Shown here: one piece after another, positions 4,673 through 46,603 of the stretch
Numbering within the stretch: position 1 is the stretch's first letter
How the letters are laid out: the number at the start of each line of letters is the position of its first letter
IMG/VR virus record: IMGVR_UViG_3300029267_003268
Coordinates: 1 to 53,395 of that record
Source: a virus
Taxonomy: Duplodnaviria; Caudoviricetes
Length of the DNA stretch: 53,395 nt
Reading direction: 5' to 3' (one strand)
Notes under the pieces: model-generated
The model's input: only the letters and a program-made list of their open reading frames with translations
What the model was told of the DNA's origin: nothing
The model's database searches: none
Program-made: the position numbers and the translations under genes

Positions 4673-5053
4673 ATGATTGCACCGATAGCACAAGCCGTTA
4701 AGAGGATGCCGTTGTTGCTGGCGTGTAAATGCGCCCGGCACGCGGTAGTACTACCGCGCGGCGAGGGGAAAATGGTATGGGCCTGCTCGGCGTGCGGGGC
4801 CGGTCAGGAAGTGGAGTTCGGACGTGACGACCGCAACCCGGCGGGCGTGCAGTTCGGCTCGCGCCGCCGCCCGGTAGAGTTGGAATGCCCCTGCGGCCAG
4901 AAGGACCTGATTGTCCTGCCGTTGGGCAAGGGGACGCTCGTCTGGTCGTGCGGGCACTGCAAGCAGCGCTGGCGCATTGATTTTACCCCTACGACCGAGC
5001 AGATCGCCAAGGGCGTGAAGATCGTGGCGCCGTTTGAGAAGGAGCCGAGCTGA
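4673..5053 (+). CDS. Double zinc-ribbon hypothetical protein
   Basis: Two CxC...WxCxxC repeats; AAGGAG RBS. Confidence 0.7.
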   Translation: MIAPIAQAVKRMPLLLACKCARHAVVLPRGEGKMVWACSACGAGQEVEFGRDDRNPAGVQFGSRRRPVELECPCGQKDLIVLPLGKGTLVWSCGHCKQRWRIDFTPTTEQIAKGVKIVAPFEKEPS

Positions 5054-8057: not shown

Positions 8058-8254
8058 AACTGGACGCAACTAATTTCACCTACCAGGGCCATCGACTCTG
8101 GATACAAGACGACGAGGACGGCAGCGCTCGCGCCGCGATGGACTATCGTATCGGCGAAATCGGCCAGCGCGTTCTGCTCGTTCAAGACAAGAACCTTCCC
8201 GTAGAAGAAAGGATCGTACATGGCAAAGAAGAAAGAGACACCCCAAGTGCCTGA
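8054..8254 (+). CDS. Hypothetical protein
   Basis: ATGA overlap, co-oriented. Confidence 0.55.
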   Translation: MKLDATNFTYQGHRLWIQDDEDGSARAAMDYRIGEIGQRVLLVQDKNLPVEERIVHGKEERDTPSA

Positions 8255-8540
8255 GCCCGTCGAGGCAGAGCCCGTCGAGGCAGAGCCCGTCGAGGCAGAG
8301 CCCGTCGAGGCAGAGCCCGTCGAGGCAGAGCCCGTTGCGGCAGAGCCCGTCGAGGCGAACGTTCAGATTCGGGTCGATATTACCGGCGCTTCCGTGCACC
8401 GATTGAAGGTGCCCGCAAGCCACGTCGATGCGGCCCTGGAACGGATCGTTCGGTGCGGAATCCAACAGCCCGGCGGATCGCCCAACAAAACCCGAGTGTA
8501 TCTGCCCCATCAGTTCGAGGCGGTCACAATCATTCGGTAA
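8220..8540 (+). CDS. Hypothetical protein with (EPVEA)7 repeat
   Basis: AAGGA RBS; in-frame 15-bp repeats. Confidence 0.65.
   Translation: MAKKKETPQVPEPVEAEPVEAEPVEAEPVEAEPVEAEPVAAEPVEANVQIRVDITGASVHRLKVPASHVDAALERIVRCGIQQPGGSPNKTRVYLPHQFEAVTIIR
8253..8357 (+). repeat. 7 x 15-bp tandem repeat GAGCCCGTCGAGGCA
   Basis: Directly visible; coding. Confidence 0.95.
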
Positions 8541-10259: not shown

Positions 10260-13166
10260 ATGAAGAAACGCATCTTCTTTGCGGTACTGCTGGCGATGCT
10301 GTGGGGCGCTCCGCGCGCCCCGGCGGCTATGACCAACAGTGCCAGCAATATTGTCAGTCCTGACTACGTCTCGTTCATCGGCTCGATGAGTACGACGTTG
10401 GACCCGGTCTATCTGTTCGGTAACGAGGTCGAGGGTTTGCTGGAGGGCACCAGTGCCTTCGGCAATCTGCTCGATACGGATTCCTATATCCAGTTTGCCG
10501 AGATGAGCGCTCCGGGCAGTCCGGCGGCCAATCACGGCCGCCTCTACGTCGCCGACGACAGCGGGACTACCACCCTCTACTTCAAGGACTCCAGCGGCAC
10601 CGTGTCGAGTTGCATTTCCGGCTCCGGCACGTTCACCGGCGGTGCAATCAGCAGCGACGTGACCCTGGCGAACGGGGTGGACATCTACAGCTCCACAACC
10701 GCCGCCCATACCAGCAGCATCGGCGTGCGTCGTGATTCTGCCTACGTAGACGCTTTTCGCTGGACGAACCACGACACCACGCCGGCCCTGGTCCTGGGGT
10801 CTGCGACAACCTCGTTAGCCGTCACTTCAACGGGCCTGAACGTTACGACCGCCGGCGCCGTTACGGGCGTAACCGATCTGACGGCGACCGGGACGCAGAC
10901 GATCAACGCCAGCGGCTCGGACGCCACCAATATCGGCACCGGGTCCTATTCCGGTACGGTAACGCTCGGCAACAACTCCGCCAGTGTCGCCGTCGGCTCC
11001 TCGGCCTGGGACATTAGTAGCGACGGGGCCATGAGCGGCTTTTCCAGCCTCGGCCTGTCCGGTGATATTACGATGGCCCACGGCAAAGGCGTTAAATCCT
11101 CGACGACCACCGCTCAGAGCGTGGGCGTCTACGGGTACGACGTCGGCGCCGGCTACGTGGGGGCCCTGGTCGTTACCAATTCCGCTACTCCGGCCACCGT
11201 CTTGGGCAATACCAGTGGCACTACGGCCATTTCGTCCAGCGATTGGACGGTGAGCACCGCCGGCAACGCGGCCGGGCTCGGTACGATCACCTCGGACGGG
11301 CTCTTTACCTGTACCGGCGGCGAGACGATGACGGGAACGGTGTCGATCAACGACAGCGCGACCACGTCCACCACCAGTATCGGGGGCGGTACGACCACGG
11401 GCACCATTACCATCGGTGGCACCGGGACGCAAGCCGTGGACATCGGCAATGGGGCCGGCATCAAAACCGTGGCCCTCGGCAGCAGTACCACGTCGAGTAC
11501 GACCACGATCAAGGGCGGCTCCAACGGCGTCAACGTCAACGTCTCGGCCGACGACCCCACCAATATCAATACGGGCACCTCGACCGGCACGGTGACAATC
11601 GGCGGCACCGGCGCACTGGCCATTGCCATCGGCGACGGCGGGACCGGGGCCAAGACGATTACCCTGGGCGACGGCGCGGGGGCTGGCTCGACGACCATCA
11701 AGGCCGGAACGGGCAACCTCGACCTATCCGCCGTCGATGACGTTTCACTCAACGGCGGCTCCGCCGGCTCTATTATCGCCATCGGCACCAACACCCACGG
11801 CAACGTCCTGAATATCGCTACGGATGACACCGCGCTCGACGACATCAACATTGGTAGCGCCAAGGACACTCCCACGATTCTCGGCTCGGCCATTGTTATC
11901 ACGGCCGGGACGGACAATCTGGCCATGAGTGCGACCGATGACGTGAGCTTGAACGGCGGGTCCGCCGGTTCAATCCTGAACCTGATGACCAATACCCACG
12001 GCAACGTCCTGAATATCGCTACGGACGACACCGCGCTGGATGACATCAACATCGGCAGTGCTAAGGATACGCCGACGATTCTCGGTGCGACCATCGTCGT
12101 GACCGCCGGGGACGGCGATCTTACAATGAGTTCGAACGACGACGTCACGCTCAACGGGGGTAGCGCCGGCTCGATTATCAATATCGGGACGAACACCCAC
12201 GGCAACGCGATCAACGTCGGCACCAACAACACGACCGCCGATACCATTGCCGTCGGCAGTGCCAAGGACACCGTTACCGTCGATGGTATCTCCACCACTA
12301 TTGGTTCGACGGGCACGACCTCGGCGACCATCATCCAGTCGGGCACGTCCGACCTCGACATCAACGCCGGGGCCGCCCTGGACATCGACGCGGCGACAAC
12401 TCTCGATATCCTGGCCGGGGGCGCCTTCTCCATCGACGGCTCCAACGCCGCCAGTAACATCTCCCTGGCGACGAACGGCGACAGCGACGACTTCACCATC
12501 GGTCTGACCGGCGCCACCAATTCCAGCATCCTACTCAACAGCACGGGTACGGGCACCGATGCGATTGGGCTGACGGCCGGGGCTGGGGGCATTACCGCGA
12601 GCGCTGCGACCGGGGCCGTCGCCCTGTCCGGTCTCACCGGCAATACCATCACGGCTACCGCCGTCGCCGACGGCGCCAAGGGCACGACGCTGTCCGGCTC
12701 CATCGCCGGGGCGACCGCCTCCGAAGGCGTCGGGGCGTACGTCGAGGGCAATATCACCGGCAATACGGACGGGAAGGTCTATGCCTTCGGTTCCTGGCTC
12801 AACGTCACTGCCGGTACGCCGACCGACGGGAGCGACGCCATCCTCGCCGGAGCGGACGTCGGTATCTACGCCGCCGCCGCGCCGGAACTGGTGAACTGCA
12901 AGCTGCGCGTCTTGAACCTGGAGTATCAGGTCCACGCGGACGCCGGGCCGATCGACGACACCACGTCGATGATCCACTTCAACGCCGATTCCGGCGGGGA
13001 CGTGCCCGACTACCTGTTCACGTTCGGCAATGCGGACGCCGCTGTATACACGGCCAATACGACGCATACAGCGGCCAATACCGATAAGATCGGCGCCATC
13101 AAGATCAGCATTACTGGCACCGCCGAGAACGCTTACCTCTACGTTTATAGCCATGCCGGACAGTAA
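10260..13166 (+). CDS. Large Gly/Thr/Ser-rich beta-repeat fibre/adhesin-like protein with signal peptide
   Basis: MKKRIFFAVLLAMLWGAPRAPAA; ~67-aa internal repeats (NTHGN). Confidence 0.7.
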   Translation: MKKRIFFAVLLAMLWGAPRAPAAMTNSASNIVSPDYVSFIGSMSTTLDPVYLFGNEVEGLLEGTSAFGNLLDTDSYIQFAEMSAPGSPAANHGRLYVADDSGTTTLYFKDSSGTVSSCISGSGTFTGGAISSDVTLANGVDIYSSTTAAHTSSIGVRRDSAYVDAFRWTNHDTTPALVLGSATTSLAVTSTGLNVTTAGAVTGVTDLTATGTQTINASGSDATNIGTGSYSGTVTLGNNSASVAVGSSAWDISSDGAMSGFSSLGLSGDITMAHGKGVKSSTTTAQSVGVYGYDVGAGYVGALVVTNSATPATVLGNTSGTTAISSSDWTVSTAGNAAGLGTITSDGLFTCTGGETMTGTVSINDSATTSTTSIGGGTTTGTITIGGTGTQAVDIGNGAGIKTVALGSSTTSSTTTIKGGSNGVNVNVSADDPTNINTGTSTGTVTIGGTGALAIAIGDGGTGAKTITLGDGAGAGSTTIKAGTGNLDLSAVDDVSLNGGSAGSIIAIGTNTHGNVLNIATDDTALDDINIGSAKDTPTILGSAIVITAGTDNLAMSATDDVSLNGGSAGSILNLMTNTHGNVLNIATDDTALDDINIGSAKDTPTILGATIVVTAGDGDLTMSSNDDVTLNGGSAGSIINIGTNTHGNAINVGTNNTTADTIAVGSAKDTVTVDGISTTIGSTGTTSATIIQSGTSDLDINAGAALDIDAATTLDILAGGAFSIDGSNAASNISLATNGDSDDFTIGLTGATNSSILLNSTGTGTDAIGLTAGAGGITASAATGAVALSGLTGNTITATAVADGAKGTTLSGSIAGATASEGVGAYVEGNITGNTDGKVYAFGSWLNVTAGTPTDGSDAILAGADVGIYAAAAPELVNCKLRVLNLEYQVHADAGPIDDTTSMIHFNADSGGDVPDYLFTFGNADAAVYTANTTHTAANTDKIGAIKISITGTAENAYLYVYSHAGQ

Positions 13167-41909: not shown

Positions 41910-42003
41910 CGTTTTGTGAGTGACGTGGGGCAAAGACAGTTTGTGCCGGAATCCTGGGGCCACATGCCAGGTTGCTTGTTTGCATAACAGATGAAAGGAC
42001 TTG

Positions 42004-42378
42004 ATGATGGCAGAGACAGAGACCCGGATTGCCCGGTTGCCGAAATGGGCACAAGATCACATCTGCCGGTTGGAAAGGCAACGGGAGCGAGCCGTAGCGG
42101 AAATGAACGCGGCACTTGACACGCAATCAGAGAGCCCGATGTACGTAGACGCTCTGGTCCTGGCAGGCGAAACCGGCAAGGGCCCTACGGTGAAGCGGCG
42201 GTACGTACAAGGGCGACAGATCGTGATTGAGTGGCAGGATGTCCGACTCAGTGTGGATTGTCGTGGCGATGGTTTGCGTTTGCAGTGGGAGACTTCTAAT
42301 AGGGGTGTGTCTCGCGTCGCGATGATCCCCGATAGCTTCCAGGCCGCCTACCTGGTCACCCGCGAAAATATGAGATGA
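42004..42378 (+). CDS. Hypothetical protein
   Basis: AAGGA RBS; LPKWAQ motif common in phage proteins. Confidence 0.65.
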   Translation: MMAETETRIARLPKWAQDHICRLERQRERAVAEMNAALDTQSESPMYVDALVLAGETGKGPTVKRRYVQGRQIVIEWQDVRLSVDCRGDGLRLQWETSNRGVSRVAMIPDSFQAAYLVTRENMR

Positions 42379-42717: not shown

Positions 42718-43023
42718 ATGGCCAGCAGACGTCGAACGGAATCGACGCCACGGAGTCGTGTTAAGAACGCCCTGCGGTTGCTATGGTTGCACAGTCGGGA
42801 GCGGGCGAAGGTTATCAAGGAGTACCGCAATACGTGCGCCGAATGCGGGGTCAAAGGGTCGAAGGCCAAAGGGCGCGTGGTCAAGATTGAGGTCCATCAC
42901 GATCCGCCTATCGGAGACAAATGGGAGAAGGTCATCGATCTGATTTTTGAGGAGATCTTGAACGCGCCGCAATACCCGCTCTGCAAGGAATGTCACGAGA
43001 AAAGGCATAACAAACTACCCTAA
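42718..43023 (+). CDS. HNH endonuclease-like protein
   Basis: CAECG...EVHH...LCKECH. Confidence 0.75.
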   Translation: MASRRRTESTPRSRVKNALRLLWLHSRERAKVIKEYRNTCAECGVKGSKAKGRVVKIEVHHDPPIGDKWEKVIDLIFEEILNAPQYPLCKECHEKRHNKLP

Positions 43024-43044
43024 CTCATTTTACTGTAAGGAGAC

Positions 43045-43323
43045 ATGATTATGGCAGGCGAACAAATGGATTTGATTGACGTCACACCCGAGGAACTCAA
43101 GAAGATCAAGCCGGTGGCGACAAAGTACAAGGCGGCGATGACGCGCCGGACGGAAGCGTTGGCCGAGGAAACACAGCTCAAGGAACAACTGCTCACGATG
43201 GTGAAAGAGGCGGACCTGACCCGCCTGGATGATGGCAGCATCAGGTTCACCTGCGACGGCCTGCTCATCACCGTCACACCACGCGACGAGCTGGTCCGGG
43301 TCAAAGAAACCGACGACGGATAG
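43045..43323 (+). CDS. Hypothetical protein
   Basis: AAGGAG RBS. Confidence 0.7.
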   Translation: MIMAGEQMDLIDVTPEELKKIKPVATKYKAAMTRRTEALAEETQLKEQLLTMVKEADLTRLDDGSIRFTCDGLLITVTPRDELVRVKETDDG

Positions 43324-43346
43324 TTTCATCTCAAAGGAGACAGCTT

Positions 43347-44000
43347 ATGAACATTACACTTGAGTTCACCGAGCCGTTGCTGGGAACGTTGCCGGCGGAC
43401 CCGGACATTGCCAGGGAGTTCATTCTGGCCAATCATCCGACTGGCGTACCGGCGGCGGACGAAGACGCCACGTTGCCGGCGGCGGACGATGTGTTCGAGA
43501 AAAGCATTACGACCTTTGCCCGCGTGGACGGCAAGCCTATCGTGTGGGATTACCAGATCAAGGGGTTCTTCAAAGACGCCTGCCTCGCCATGATCGATAT
43601 GCAGAGCCACACGCAGGATTCGCTCAAGAAGGCCGGTCTCACAAAGTACATGTATAAACGCACCATCGACAACGTGATCTTCCCCCGGCCCCGGTTCATC
43701 GCCTTGGAACAGCCGGACGGGCCTCCCGAATGGCCGAATTGGGAGAGCCTCCCGGAAGGTCCGATGGGATTGAAGCTGTTGCAGCGTCCTCTCCGAAAGG
43801 AAAATCCACGCGGCGGTACGACGTGCCTGGCGACCTCTGAGATTATCCCGCCCGGCACGAAGCTGCAATGTGAGATCTGCATTGGAGCCGACCGCCTGGA
43901 GCCCTACGTCGTCGAATGGCTCGACTACGGGGCTCTCAAAGGCTTGGGGCAGTGGCGAAATGCCAGTTACGGACGGTTCGCATGGTCCGCGCGAGCGTGA
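43347..44000 (+). CDS. Stand-alone Cas7/RAMP-superfamily-like protein
   Basis: ITLEFTEPLLGT, YQIKGFFKDA, SEIIPPGTKLQCEI, C-terminal G-rich loop GLGQWRNASYGRF in RAMP order. Confidence 0.75.
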   Translation: MNITLEFTEPLLGTLPADPDIAREFILANHPTGVPAADEDATLPAADDVFEKSITTFARVDGKPIVWDYQIKGFFKDACLAMIDMQSHTQDSLKKAGLTKYMYKRTIDNVIFPRPRFIALEQPDGPPEWPNWESLPEGPMGLKLLQRPLRKENPRGGTTCLATSEIIPPGTKLQCEICIGADRLEPYVVEWLDYGALKGLGQWRNASYGRFAWSARA

Positions 44001-44481
44001 GCAAAGGCACAGCCCAGCACAGCAAAGCAAAGGCAAGGCTGCGCGATGCGGGGCAACGGCAAAGCGCTGCATGGCTCCGCTAAGGCAAGGCGCGGCATGG
44101 TGCGGCGATGCAAGGGCAAGGCAAAGCGAAGCGCAGCCTAGCAAAGGCAAAGCAAAGCGCCGCGCCGCGAAGGCGGGGCATAGCGAAGCACAGCGAAGCA
44201 AAGGCATGGTTAGGCATGGTTAGGCATAGCGAAGGCACAGCAAGGCACCGCTTAGCTCCGCTACGCAAAGGCAAAGCGAAGCGAGGCTAAGGCCAAGTGT
44301 AGCCGCGCGCTGCTAAGGCGGAGCGTCGTTGCGCAACGCAAAGGCAAAGTATAGCCAGGCGCAGCAAAGGCAAAGTACAGTAACGTTTGGCACAGCAACG
44401 GCAAGGCGTGGCAACGCGCGGCGCCGCAAAGGCAAGGCTCAGTATGGCACAGCAGAGCAAAGCAAAGGCACAGCATTGTAA
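44000..44481 (+). repeat. 5-nt periodic (NGY-NN) array segmented by 17 GCNANGGC delimiters; putative guide-RNA array
   Basis: Delimiter spacings all 5n+1 (21-36 nt); GC/GT every 5 nt; no convincing ORF. Confidence 0.85.
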
Positions 44482-44512
44482 CGACGTTTGAAAATACGCA
44501 TGGAGGCCGTCG

Positions 44513-45358
44513 ATGTACGGTAAAATCTTCGCTGAAATCTTCGATTCGAGTTTGCAAGGCGAATGTGACGGCATCGCCATGTTTGTCTTTATGAGCATGA
44601 TTGTCCTGGCGGACAAGGACGGCTATGTCCGCGTGGACGAGCTGAATTTCTATCGCAAGCTCGGCTTGCCGTGGGGCGACCCCGACGGCATTGACAAGTG
44701 GGCTCTACGTCGTTTCCGGGAAGCAATCGACCTATTGGCGGCCCCCGACGAAAACAGCAATATCGCCAAGGAGGGCGGCCGTCGCATCATTCCGCTATCT
44801 GAGTTGACTGGCGGCGAAGAAAATCGGGGCTGGTGGATCGTGAACTATGAGCATTACTGCCACAAGGCGAGCGAGGCCAAAATCCGAGCCCAAACACGAA
44901 AACGGGTTCAACGGCACCGGCAAAAACAGACGGAAACTATGCAAAAGTGTAACGCACCCGTAACGCAGTGTAACGAAAAACCTCGACATATAGATATACC
45001 TGTAAATATAGATAATATAGCGCAAGCTGCGCTTGCTTGTGCAGGCGATGAGTCTTTTGCACAGTTTTGGGATGCATATCCGAAGAAGCGCAGCAAGAAG
45101 GATGCACAAAAAGCATGGCGCAAGCTCAAACCTGATGACGCCCTCTTCCGGACGATCATGGACGCCGTGGCCTTCTGGAAGCAAACGCCAGATTGGATGA
45201 AAGAGAAAGGCGCCTACGTGCCGTTGCCGGCGACGTGGCTGCGTGGTGAGCGATGGACAGATGAACGCCCCGAACTGCCGCCGCCAAAGAAGGATATTCG
45301 CGAGACAATGCACGACTTCTTTGCCAAGCACCCGGAGTATGACGATGACCAAACTTGA
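44513..45358 (+). CDS. Phage replication initiator
   Basis: MYGKIF..IFDSSL N-terminus, RKRVQRHR linker, FAQFWDAYPKK..KKDAQKAW, PATWLRGERWTD. Confidence 0.8.
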   Translation: MYGKIFAEIFDSSLQGECDGIAMFVFMSMIVLADKDGYVRVDELNFYRKLGLPWGDPDGIDKWALRRFREAIDLLAAPDENSNIAKEGGRRIIPLSELTGGEENRGWWIVNYEHYCHKASEAKIRAQTRKRVQRHRQKQTETMQKCNAPVTQCNEKPRHIDIPVNIDNIAQAALACAGDESFAQFWDAYPKKRSKKDAQKAWRKLKPDDALFRTIMDAVAFWKQTPDWMKEKGAYVPLPATWLRGERWTDERPELPPPKKDIRETMHDFFAKHPEYDDDQT

Positions 45359-46016
45359 GTTCGAGGAATTCTTTTTGAACGACCTGAAAGGACGTTGGCC
45401 CAAATGGGATCCCACACCGGCCATGCTGGAAGATTGGTTCTCTATTCTCCGCTACCACACGCCCGACGTAGCCAAGCAGGCCATCCAAGAGCACCGCCTG
45501 GGCGATAAGAGCACGCGATGGGAGCCGCAGCTTCGCGACGTCAAGAAGCGGCTCTGGCAGCTCTCGAAGCGCGCTGGTAGCGATGACGTGCTCGGTACGA
45601 CGTATTTCGCCTACGTGCGGTGTCTTGAGCCGCCGGCAGGTCATCCCGAATGGCAGGACGAAGAATGGCTATCGCTGGAGCGGTTCGAACGGTCCCGCGC
45701 CACCGATAAGAGATACGTCGCCAGCTATGCCGAGCGGCGGGCGGCGGCGGTGCAGCAGGAAGAGGGCGGTCGGTGGTGCGGTGTCGTGCGCCCGGACGGC
45801 CAAATGCCGCCGGGGTTTCCGACGCTGGAGAAGGAGGAGGCGAGGCAGTGCGTCGAACAACATTGCCGCAACGGACCCAATACCGCCGCCCGGCGTTATT
45901 TGCTGGGCGCTTCCGGTAGCATGAGGCCCGTATTGAAAACGGTTGAGAGCGTCGCGAAAAGAGAGATAGACAAGGCGGCGGACGAACTTAACGAGGACCG
46001 ATGGGAGTTTGGATGA
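45345..46016 (+). CDS. Putative helicase loader / replication accessory protein
   Basis: Follows initiator; MTKLEFEEF..L..RWP, AIQEH. Confidence 0.5.
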   Translation: MTKLEFEEFFLNDLKGRWPKWDPTPAMLEDWFSILRYHTPDVAKQAIQEHRLGDKSTRWEPQLRDVKKRLWQLSKRAGSDDVLGTTYFAYVRCLEPPAGHPEWQDEEWLSLERFERSRATDKRYVASYAERRAAAVQQEEGGRWCGVVRPDGQMPPGFPTLEKEEARQCVEQHCRNGPNTAARRYLLGASGSMRPVLKTVESVAKREIDKAADELNEDRWEFG

Positions 46017-46603
46017 GCAAATCGAAAATCATCCTGGATCTGTGCGGTGGCACCGGGGCTTGGTCGCAGCCGTACCGCGATGCCGGCTACGACGTGCGGC
46101 TGGTGACGTTGCCGGATGCCGACGTTCGGTTGCGAATGCCCATTGGCAACGTTCACGGCGTTCTGGCGGTACCACCCTGTACGCACCTGGCGGCGTCAGG
46201 AGCCCGCTGGTGGAAGGACAAGGGGCGGCAACCGCTATTGGATGCGTTGGCGGTTGCTGACGCCTGTATGCGAATTGTGGCCGTTGAGCAACCGGCATGG
46301 TGGGCGCTCGAAAACCCGGTGGGGAGATTACGCCACTACTACGGAGACCCGGCTTTCGACTTCCATCCCTGGGAGTTCGGCGATCCCTACACCAAGAGAA
46401 CGTATCTGTGGGGAAAGTTTACTGCGCCGCAGCGGCAACCGTGCGAGCCGGAAATCACGGACCATAAAAAGTTCACGCTCAGAGACATGCACAGGCTGTT
46501 TCCGTCCCGGATGCACTTGCTCCCGGCCGGACCAGACCGGGCCCGCTATCCTTCAATCACTCCCCCCGGCTTCGCACAGGCATTTTTCAAGGCGAACCCA
46601 TGA
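46013..46603 (+). CDS. Short C5-cytosine methyltransferase-like protein
   Basis: ILDLCGGTG, PPCT, ENPVG motifs. Confidence 0.75.
   Translation: MSKSKIILDLCGGTGAWSQPYRDAGYDVRLVTLPDADVRLRMPIGNVHGVLAVPPCTHLAASGARWWKDKGRQPLLDALAVADACMRIVAVEQPAWWALENPVGRLRHYYGDPAFDFHPWEFGDPYTKRTYLWGKFTAPQRQPCEPEITDHKKFTLRDMHRLFPSRMHLLPAGPDRARYPSITPPGFAQAFFKANP

Follow-up and report, generated by a model that had tools for sequence, protein, structure and literature searches.

A tail-less, one-base-punctuated repeat array beside a Cas7-like RAMP gene identifies a divergent VIPR locus in a complete phage genome

Gene and array at the locus

The window, meaning the whole stretch of DNA that was analysed, is a phage record 53,395 bases long that is 100% complete and has direct terminal repeats. 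Contigs from four DNA runs are identical to the window, and hence they supply no variants, ends, or joints. The locus consists of a gene for a 217-aa protein and an array of short repeats (Table 1). The array follows directly on the stop codon of the gene, on the same strand, and occupies the interval between this gene and a replication-initiation gene. The names vipr and vrRNA follow the assignment of the locus to the Viral Interference Programmable Repeat (VIPR) system.

Table 1. Features of the locus and its surroundings, in window coordinates.
Feature	Position	Strand	Basis or remark
101-aa HNH endonuclease-like ORF	42718..43023	+	phrog_3106, E 5.4e-7; two genes upstream of vipr
92-aa ORF, candidate accessory (vap-like) gene	43045..43323	+	by position only; ends 23 nt before vipr
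vipr gene, 217-aa Vipr protein, predicted single-domain Cas7-like RAMP	43347..44000	+	AF2 fold, Foldseek, hhalign
vrRNA array	44001..44479	+ (vipr sense strand)	~92 N-G-Y-N-N pentamers; 16 full units of 4-7 repeats and a 2-repeat end
GCNANGGC junctions (n = 17)	44001..44469	+	starts at 44001, 44027, 44053, 44079, 44110, 44141, 44167, 44198, 44229, 44265, 44286, 44312, 44338, 44364, 44395, 44426, 44462
Replication-initiation protein gene	44513-45358	+	phrog_9474, 1.5e-23; phrog_270, 3.5e-23

The array is divided by 17 copies of the delimiter GCNANGGC. The 16 spacings between successive copies are, in order, 26, 26, 26, 31, 31, 26, 31, 31, 36, 21, 26, 26, 26, 31, 31, and 36 nt, and all of them have the form 5n+1. 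The delimiter starts and spacings listed in the first-pass annotation were reproduced exactly, and the variable triplets it quoted from units 9 and 14 are correct. On the plus strand the delimiter occurs 17 times in ~470 nt of array compared to 42 times across the remaining ~52.9 kb of the window. Within the units, each 5-nt step opens with GC or GT. A strict chain of G[C/T] anchors, each 5 or 6 nt from the next, extends over 43989-44478 on the plus strand and contains 95 anchors and 19 six-nt steps. The start of this chain lies within the last codons of vipr, and its first three six-nt steps are inside the gene end. The longest chain in 1000 dinucleotide-preserving shuffles of the region had a mean of 6.5 anchors (sd 1.5) and a maximum of 14, and the longest strict chains elsewhere in the window have 9 anchors on the plus strand and 8 on the minus strand. 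The minus strand of the array itself yields a chain split into four pieces of 10-21 anchors each, and the pattern is intact solely on the plus strand. Autocorrelation and positional entropy, which the first-pass annotation had put forward as checks, were both computed. Autocorrelation peaks are located at lags 5 (0.54), 10, 26 (0.57), 31 (0.55), 57, and 62 against a background of ~0.2, and the entropies are given with the repeat composition below.

The region was also examined for known RNA elements. An Rfam scan of 43000-45500 identified no family; its sole row was nhaA-I on the minus strand (43230-43281), which at 23.3 bits stayed below the gathering score of 37. Terminator-like sites were not detected on the plus strand between vipr and the array, and a promoter and terminator scan around the array was uninformative. 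The predicted minimum free energy of the folded array is -198 kcal/mol compared to -181.7 ± 4.9 kcal/mol for 100 shuffles (z -3.3). This difference is explicable by GC:GC pairing in register, so no conclusion is drawn from the fold.

The genes upstream of vipr were inspected for accessory functions. The family matches of the 92-aa ORF are weak and sub-threshold, and the ORFs that precede vipr in the loci of 79 relatives include no homologue of it. The 101-aa HNH-like ORF is a possible accessory gene or merely a neighbor; HNH is among the vap domains named in the fig. S21 legend of the VIPR discovery paper (10.64898/2026.04.26.720920). A DUF7239 ORF is also present upstream, and a DNA methyltransferase gene is located downstream of the array. 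The upstream slot is variable in the relatives. Some of them carry an HTH protein there, as in one locus (L010) with an HTH_31 protein (E 3.9e-12), and BLAST clustering of the 79 relatives' upstream ORFs did not reveal a conserved accessory gene. The large minus-strand clusters in that analysis are shadow ORFs of vipr. We did not detect a Cas1 match in the window at E<=1, a search that was positive in 9 of 14 control genomes, and the window contains no CRISPR-like repeat array.

The 217-aa protein, its relatives, and phage SUSP1 Vipr

The 217-aa protein has no family match in Pfam, PHROG, NCBIfam, or PADLOC. Of 6256 candidates for its own family, 6003 proteins were retained at E<=1e-3, counted after 90% clustering, and the family comprises 2076 clusters at 50% identity. 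An AF2 model computed from a 41-sequence alignment has a pLDDT of 85.9 and a pTM of 0.81. Foldseek comparison of the model to the PDB returned 24 matches at E<=1e-3, and among the matches listed all are CRISPR RAMPs. The best is the type VII Cas7 8z4j_J (E 1.6e-5, TMq 0.51), and the others listed are Csm3, Cmr4, type III-D, Csf2, Cas7-11, one Cas6, and Csc2. At the sequence level, the glycine-rich G-loop near the C-terminus links the family profile to type VII Cas7 (E 0.0019) and Csm4 (E 0.17). As modeled, the 217-aa protein folds as a Cas7-type RAMP.

Homologues of the protein were located in viral contigs, and their flanks were searched with a detector that follows a tolerant 5/6-nt chain. 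The first three homologues are 35-41% identical to the 217-aa protein, and all three loci (3/3) have a G-anchored 5-nt array straight after the stop codon at a very different base composition. The viral set was then composed of 83 loci, the three found first plus 80 kept from 563 more relatives returned by a family profile search. In 83 of the 83 loci, whose homologues are 35-48% identical, the highest-scoring 5/6-nt chain has the same strand as the gene and lies beside or across it. The chain is downstream in 75 loci, upstream in five, and spans the gene in three, and 18 of the 75 downstream chains run back into the 3' end of the gene. Chain scores in the viral loci are 33-746 compared to <=34 elsewhere in the window, and the relatives' genomes with this architecture have G+C contents of 38-60%. 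A second set was drawn from cellular genome assemblies at one per species, with 80 loci kept of 177 relatives found. An array is present in 73 of these 80 (score >=35), weak in two, and not detectable in five. The assemblies are Planctomycetota, Desulfobacterota-like, Chloroflexota, gut Firmicutes, Coriobacteriia, and Bacteroidota MAGs. Arrays can be very large, as in a 243-kb relative (G001), where ~914 repeats extend over 4.7 kb in about 140 units. The occurrence of the array beside the gene in both viral and assembly loci indicates that the protein and the array are one conserved module.

A module of this kind has been described. VIPR is a phage RNA-guided DNA-silencing system reported in two 2026 preprints (bioRxiv 10.64898/2026.04.26.720920 and 10.64898/2026.04.26.720927). 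Its Vipr protein is a ~20 kDa phage RAMP that polymerises on a vrRNA of GGY/NN pentamers with one protomer per repeat. The GGY scaffold is clamped by the G-loop, the thumb, and helix-1, and the NN dinucleotides are the guide. Their base pairing to DNA leaves out every third base of the target and results in the silencing of competing phages and satellites (10.64898/2026.04.26.720920; 10.64898/2026.04.26.720927). The founding Vipr is from phage SUSP1 (YP_009199429.1; 10.64898/2026.10.15.759431), which corresponds to L086:28474-29061. The same chain detector was applied to the SUSP1 locus as a positive control and recovered four tracts of 12-15 GGY/NN repeats flanking its vipr, as published.

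The relationship of the 217-aa protein to SUSP1 Vipr was visible to profile comparison. A tblastn search did not link the 217-aa protein to SUSP1 Vipr (four phage records, none of them SUSP1), and the HMM of the 217-aa family gave 0 matches to SUSP1 at E<=10. Alignment of the 217-aa family to the SUSP1 Vipr family (34 relatives) with hhalign produced 176 collinear columns with an E of 2e-4 and a probability of 47%, and a separate hhalign comparison to SUSP1 Vipr aligned the G-loops with an E of 6e-4 over 26 columns. Homology to the founder SUSP1 Vipr is thus moderate, not strong, and was detected only in profile-to-profile comparison. R138 and R179 do not vary in the SUSP1-family alignment, and K33 and R39 are nearly invariant; these are residues reported as functional in the cryo-EM paper, and their conservation anchors the SUSP1 residue numbering. 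In this numbering, G-L-G-Q202-W203-R204 of the 217-aa protein aligns with G-x-G-D177-W178-R179 of SUSP1 Vipr. The SUSP1 structure assigns the reading of G1 to D177 and H17, the stacking on G2 to W178, and the contact that holds Y3 to R179 (10.64898/2026.04.26.720927). Both of the G1-reading positions (H17 and D177) are replaced in the 217-aa family, the tryptophan and arginine are kept, and Q202 is invariant (41/41).

Repeat composition and the one-base junction

The repeats were aligned in the frame of the published VIPR code, G1 G2 Y3 N4 N5, and composition was tabulated over 94 steps. The anchor G2 is G in 94/94 (0.00 bits), and Y3 is C in 84 and T in 10 (0.49 bits). The other three positions are variable: G1 is G 39, A 36, C 15, and T 4 (1.67 bits; 80% purine), N4 is A 49, G 27, T 13, and C 5 (1.63 bits), and N5 is A 47, C 24, T 16, and G 7 (1.72 bits). 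The repeat form of the array is the YNNNG variant, in which the first G of GGY is degenerate. This degeneracy accounts for the description of the array in the first-pass annotation as GY plus variable triplets. The third base of that triplet is the degenerate G1, and it is G in 17 of the 19 repeats that follow a break. The replacement of the G1-reading residues in the protein suggests that the relaxed G1 of the array matches its protein partner.

The junctions have a layout of their own. At each six-nt step the last repeat (xGC plus NN) is followed by one extra base, and the next unit opens with GGY, which is a full GGC at the 17 delimiters. The NN of the last repeat at the 19 six-nt steps is AA in 12, TA in three, GA in two, and others in two, and the extra base is A in 14, G in three, and C in two. 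G1 is G in only 22 of the 75 repeats that are not first after a break. A repeated 3' tail was not found in the array, and the units abut directly. The tracts in register are 4-7 repeats long, which leaves ~6-10 variable guide bases per unit when the first and last NN, both conserved, are not counted.

The same grammar was found in the relatives. The 76 distinct arrays of viral relatives share the junction consensus G-C-A-A-N-G-G-Y, and their chains contain 6411 steps of 5 nt, 1508 of 6 nt, 76 of 4 nt, and 43 of 7 nt. Unit size, counted from one 6-nt step to the next, peaks at 5, 6, and 7 repeats (220, 365, and 201 units), and the genome-assembly loci have the same peak (269, 298, and 147 units). 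An extra peak at 1-2 repeats is noise that arises where the tolerant chain crosses genes or degenerate stretches. These data show that the 5n+1 unit grammar and the junction consensus are clade-wide.

The first-pass annotation had looked to related phages for the gain or loss of whole units or pentamers. A comparison of closely related gut phages revealed whole units that one array has and another lacks, between flanking units that are still recognisable. Pairwise alignments of close relatives' arrays contain many gaps, with 5, 6, 2, 3, 1, 21, and 20 nt the commonest lengths. Whole-unit differences were thus found as expected, and the expectation that indels come as multiples of 5 or as whole units is neither cleanly borne out nor refuted by gap lengths in which alignment ambiguity dominates.

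Assignment to VIPR and reading of the junctions

The fold of the protein, the gene-array context, the RNA signature, and the profile-level sequence link together place the locus in VIPR. Positions 43347-44479 are very probably a VIPR locus made up of a vipr gene and its own vrRNA array on the same strand. The described system has seven types and the alternative repeat forms NNNGG, YNNNG, and NNNNG, and among its array layouts are 'staggered arrays with overlapping vrRNAs', hammerhead-interspersed arrays, and single vrRNAs (10.64898/2026.04.26.720920). The locus is a divergent, tail-less, one-base-punctuated, YNNNG-type member of this already described system. The proposal that the array is a library of short guides interleaved with scaffold therefore holds in substance, as the published VIPR, with the correction that the guide is the NN dinucleotide and not a triplet.

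The closest comparison is to VIPR type II, represented by Escherichia phage SUSP1 and a Pseudomonas fulva prophage. The shared features are a small phage RAMP of ~20 kDa with the G-loop G-x-G-[D/Q]-W-R...G-R-F, pentamers with a fixed G-Y and a variable dinucleotide beside the gene on the sense strand, and the lack of a CRISPR array, to which the window adds the lack of a Cas1 match. The published type II vrRNA consists of 9-16 GGY/NN repeats and a conserved structured 3' pseudoknot tail (10.64898/2026.04.26.720920). SUSP1 has four separate vrRNAs with 12-15 strict 5-nt GGY/NN repeats, each with a ~40-nt conserved tail. In contrast, the array in the window is a single uninterrupted 480-nt tract that slips by 1 nt every 4-7 repeats and has a degenerate G1, and it lacks both the 9-16 repeats in register and the 3' tail of type II. 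The YNNNG form matches the array. The likeness to staggered arrays is judged from the fig. S18 legend, which refers to 'staggered vrRNA arrays ... 1 nt overlapping positions' (10.64898/2026.04.26.720920), and the extra base at the junctions probably corresponds to these staggered arrays, which are unvalidated in the paper.

Class 1 CRISPR-Cas effectors (Cas7, Csm3, Cmr4, and Csf2 on crRNA) have the same fold class as the 217-aa protein and are the best structural matches of its AF2 model. In class 1 CRISPR, as in Vipr, one protomer covers each short RNA segment and the thumb periodically disrupts pairing (10.64898/2026.04.26.720920; 10.64898/2026.04.26.720927). The class 1 crRNA has a sequence-independent 6-nt period and a contiguous guide, whereas the array has a 5-nt period. 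CRISPR arrays have 25-40-nt repeats, acquired spacers, Cas6 or Cas5, and adaptation genes, whereas here there are no such repeats and no Cas1. The 'spacers' in the window are themselves periodic, and the neighbors are phage replication, HNH, and methyltransferase genes, features that set the locus apart from class 1 CRISPR-Cas. A CRISPR mini-array with 8-nt repeats was considered and rejected.

By analogy with SUSP1, the array would be transcribed from the plus strand, and each pentamer of the transcript would be bound by one Vipr protomer, with the protomers building up a helical filament. Such a filament is expected to hold the invariant G and the pyrimidine as scaffold and to expose the two bases that follow. 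The exposed dinucleotides could then recognise double-stranded DNA in a non-contiguous manner and so silence a competing phage or other mobile element. The junctions would be the boundaries between successive short vrRNA modules in a 'staggered array' architecture, with processing presumed to occur there.

The prediction that the junctions are module boundaries, either processing sites or filament ends, is one to which we give an even chance. It is favored by the staggered-array legend of fig. S18, the conserved GCAA-N-GGY junction, and the whole-unit differences between relatives. A second reading stays within VIPR and is possible, if on balance doubtful. It envisages one long or multi-unit RNA covered by a continuous filament, in which the extra base is a bulge that keeps the register and the guide spans several units. 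The number of repeats per unit (mode 6, mostly 5-7) is the same as the count of protomers reported for one turn of the filament, which is six in the binary complex and five in the ternary complex (10.64898/2026.04.26.720927). This match may be a coincidence or a once-per-turn adjustment of a longer filament. The variation of unit length between 4 and 8 repeats, with no fixed helical count, weighs against a continuous filament, as do the cassette-like differences of whole units between close relatives and the return of the full GGY in 17/19 first repeats, as for a new start. The legend also describes individual processed vrRNAs in staggered arrays (10.64898/2026.04.26.720920). The small number of variable guide bases in a single unit and the size that arrays can reach, as in the 243-kb phage, are more easily accommodated by reading through the junctions.

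Target searches bear on the same question. Single units of the 243-kb phage were matched to its own genome, and self-avoidance was not detected for any skip rule or unit length; the observed matches equal the shuffled expectation throughout. For 6-repeat units with a 1-nt skip there were four perfect matches compared to 2.8 ± 1.7 in 40 shuffles, and 119 with <=1 mismatch compared to 110 ± 12 in 40 shuffles. Self-matching at the chance rate, together with the few guide bases per unit, argues against the units as stand-alone guides and favors the continuous guide. A guide that crosses a junction was modeled as a 10-repeat pattern, and this one pattern had 0 exact matches in the viral contigs, which counts against reading through. 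The 758 distinct units were also compared to 0.83 Mb of related phage DNA, a small database, and gave 505 matches with a 1-nt skip compared to 473 ± 40 for shuffled units. There was no enrichment over shuffles in this DNA under the 0-, 1-, or 2-nt skip rules. An apparent enrichment under the collinear rules NN3, N32, and N41 came from further array copies that had not been masked and was discarded. With a small database and an uncertain junction rule these target tests are weak, and they say nothing against targeting.

Explanations outside VIPR fare much worse. An element that acts as DNA, namely a replication origin or an iteron-like binding array upstream of an initiator gene with G-C dinucleotides about half a helical turn apart, is very improbable. 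The array is directly upstream of the replication-initiation gene, and its mean step of ~5.2 bp is near half of 10.5 bp. However, the relatives' arrays follow the vipr homologue whatever gene comes downstream, and a search of the viral contigs for relatives of the replication protein, beside such arrays or elsewhere, found none. Strand asymmetry of the pattern, with the vipr sense strand as its constant location, is expected of RNA, and the partner protein is predicted to have an RNA-binding-type RAMP fold.

A decaying pentanucleotide microsatellite, or a slippage product without a function of its own, is the least credible of the alternatives: Tandem Repeats Finder reports low-scoring periods of 5, 10, 26, and 31 nt with ~67-76% matches in an A/G-rich sequence of low complexity, but the register and the anchor G are perfect next to positions near maximal entropy, as the first-pass annotation had observed in distinguishing a kept phase and changing content from a decaying satellite, the same architecture recurs beside proteins and in genomes as divergent as those described above, and between close relatives the anchor G is substituted at a rate of 0.020 compared to 0.094-0.139 at the other four positions, 5-7x less often in pairs that are not independent. 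A coding role was rejected, as no reading frame can be maintained over a 5-nt period; the array is low in T, which accounts for the long ORFs that cross it.

The locus adds nothing categorically new to VIPR; what is modestly novel is the way in which its 5n+1 punctuation is read. One speculative idea, which we regard as unlikely, is that the punctuation is a decoding layer so far undescribed for VIPR, through which a transcript that has neither tails nor ribozymes is parsed into one-turn modules or read through as a long filament, and that the loss of the G1-reading residues frees a third base of the code. Under such a scheme one extra base would be placed about once per filament turn (5-7 protomers), between a GC-AA end and a full GGY restart, and an array would hold dozens to >100 one-turn modules (16 here and ~140 in the 243-kb phage). 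The loss of H17 and the change of D177 to Q may free the third base of each repeat for the code. D177-to-Q together with a relaxed first G yields a prediction, from structure to code, that can be tested directly.

The clade of the window may already be covered in the supplementary material of the discovery paper. Confirmation by sRNA-seq is described there for the ribozyme-interspersed and single-vrRNA architectures and not for the staggered one, and the tail-less punctuated architecture, as the probable staggered form, is the one presented without experimental validation (10.64898/2026.04.26.720920). The short units of this architecture raise the question of how sufficient specificity is reached. 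VIPR, with its gapped-code recognition of DNA, has been proposed to be older than CRISPR. The signature of the system is recognisable from the raw sequence alone, and following it leads to a large Vipr clade that lacks annotation, has a consistent array grammar, tail-less and punctuated by one base, and occurs in sediment, marine, and gut phages and prophages.

Size, position and form of the pentamer arrays

The longest array by far among all those examined belongs to G001, a virus record of 242,978 bases that is 99% complete (CheckV) and is the source of loci L001 and L168. It holds approximately 140 units and 914 repeats directly 3' of the vipr homologue, and its anchors are GT, not GC. In L004, the closest viral-contig relative (48% identity), vipr is flanked by two strict arrays, one on either side. 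Among the 83 viral loci encoding vipr homologues, the array is upstream only in five, and the chain of G anchors at 5/6-nt steps spans the vipr gene in three.

The arrays of the gut clade (the L010–L056 cluster) have a looser repeat. The pyrimidine position is also relaxed, with aga, gga and tga repeats frequent, and therefore a single G is fixed in each pentamer, giving an NNNNG form. Units in these arrays typically start with GGA-AT or GGC-AA and end with GC-AA plus one base. A G-anchored 5/6-nt chain was not found within about 3 kb of the Vipr homologue gene in five of the 80 genome-assembly loci (L088, L107, L153, L154 and L159). These loci may use a different repeat motif, may have lost the array, or may have it placed farther off.

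Genes surrounding vipr

The gene upstream of vipr was compared among the relatives. It encodes an XRE-type HTH protein in the large gut-phage cluster. A different cluster has a cysteine-rich, zinc-ribbon-like ORF at this position, with matches below the Pfam cut-offs. No upstream gene common to the whole Vipr family was found, and the 92-aa ORF upstream of vipr in the window has no homologue among the relatives' upstream ORFs. The methyltransferase and DUF7239 genes of the window are ordinary phage neighbours. Three tandem repeats are located elsewhere in the window and show no apparent connection with the pentamer array.

Coordinates of arrays, genes and tandem repeats in the window and in related records
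Feature	Record	Coordinates	Details
Pentamer array	G001	C1:52652-57337	~4.7 kb
Strict array	L004	4104-4916	one side of vipr; 158 anchors
Strict array	L004	5624-6141	other side of vipr; 101 anchors
XRE-type HTH protein ORF	L010 (and relatives)	4720-4977	just upstream of vipr; HTH_31, E 3.9e-12
Tandem repeat	window	8253-8356	15 nt x 6.9
Tandem repeat	window	11748-12207	201 nt x 2.3
Tandem repeat	window	32310-32596	24/27 nt x ~5-6
DUF7239 protein gene	window	42001-42378	upstream of vipr/array module
DNA methyltransferase gene	window	46001-46603	downstream of replication genes; phrog_757, E 4.6e-47

Possible double Vipr proteins and co-occurring elements

Two representative proteins, P0121 (458 aa) and P0124 (432 aa), each contain two separate stretches that match the Vipr family profile over approximately its full length. 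These paired matches suggest that both are tandem-fused double Vipr proteins. Several short contigs from the four DNA sequencing runs with matches to the window align to positions 43543–43583 alone, with 2–4 differences. This 41-nt segment encodes the conserved WDYQIKGFFKD helix. The partial matches indicate that further Vipr-encoding elements co-occur in the samples of these runs.
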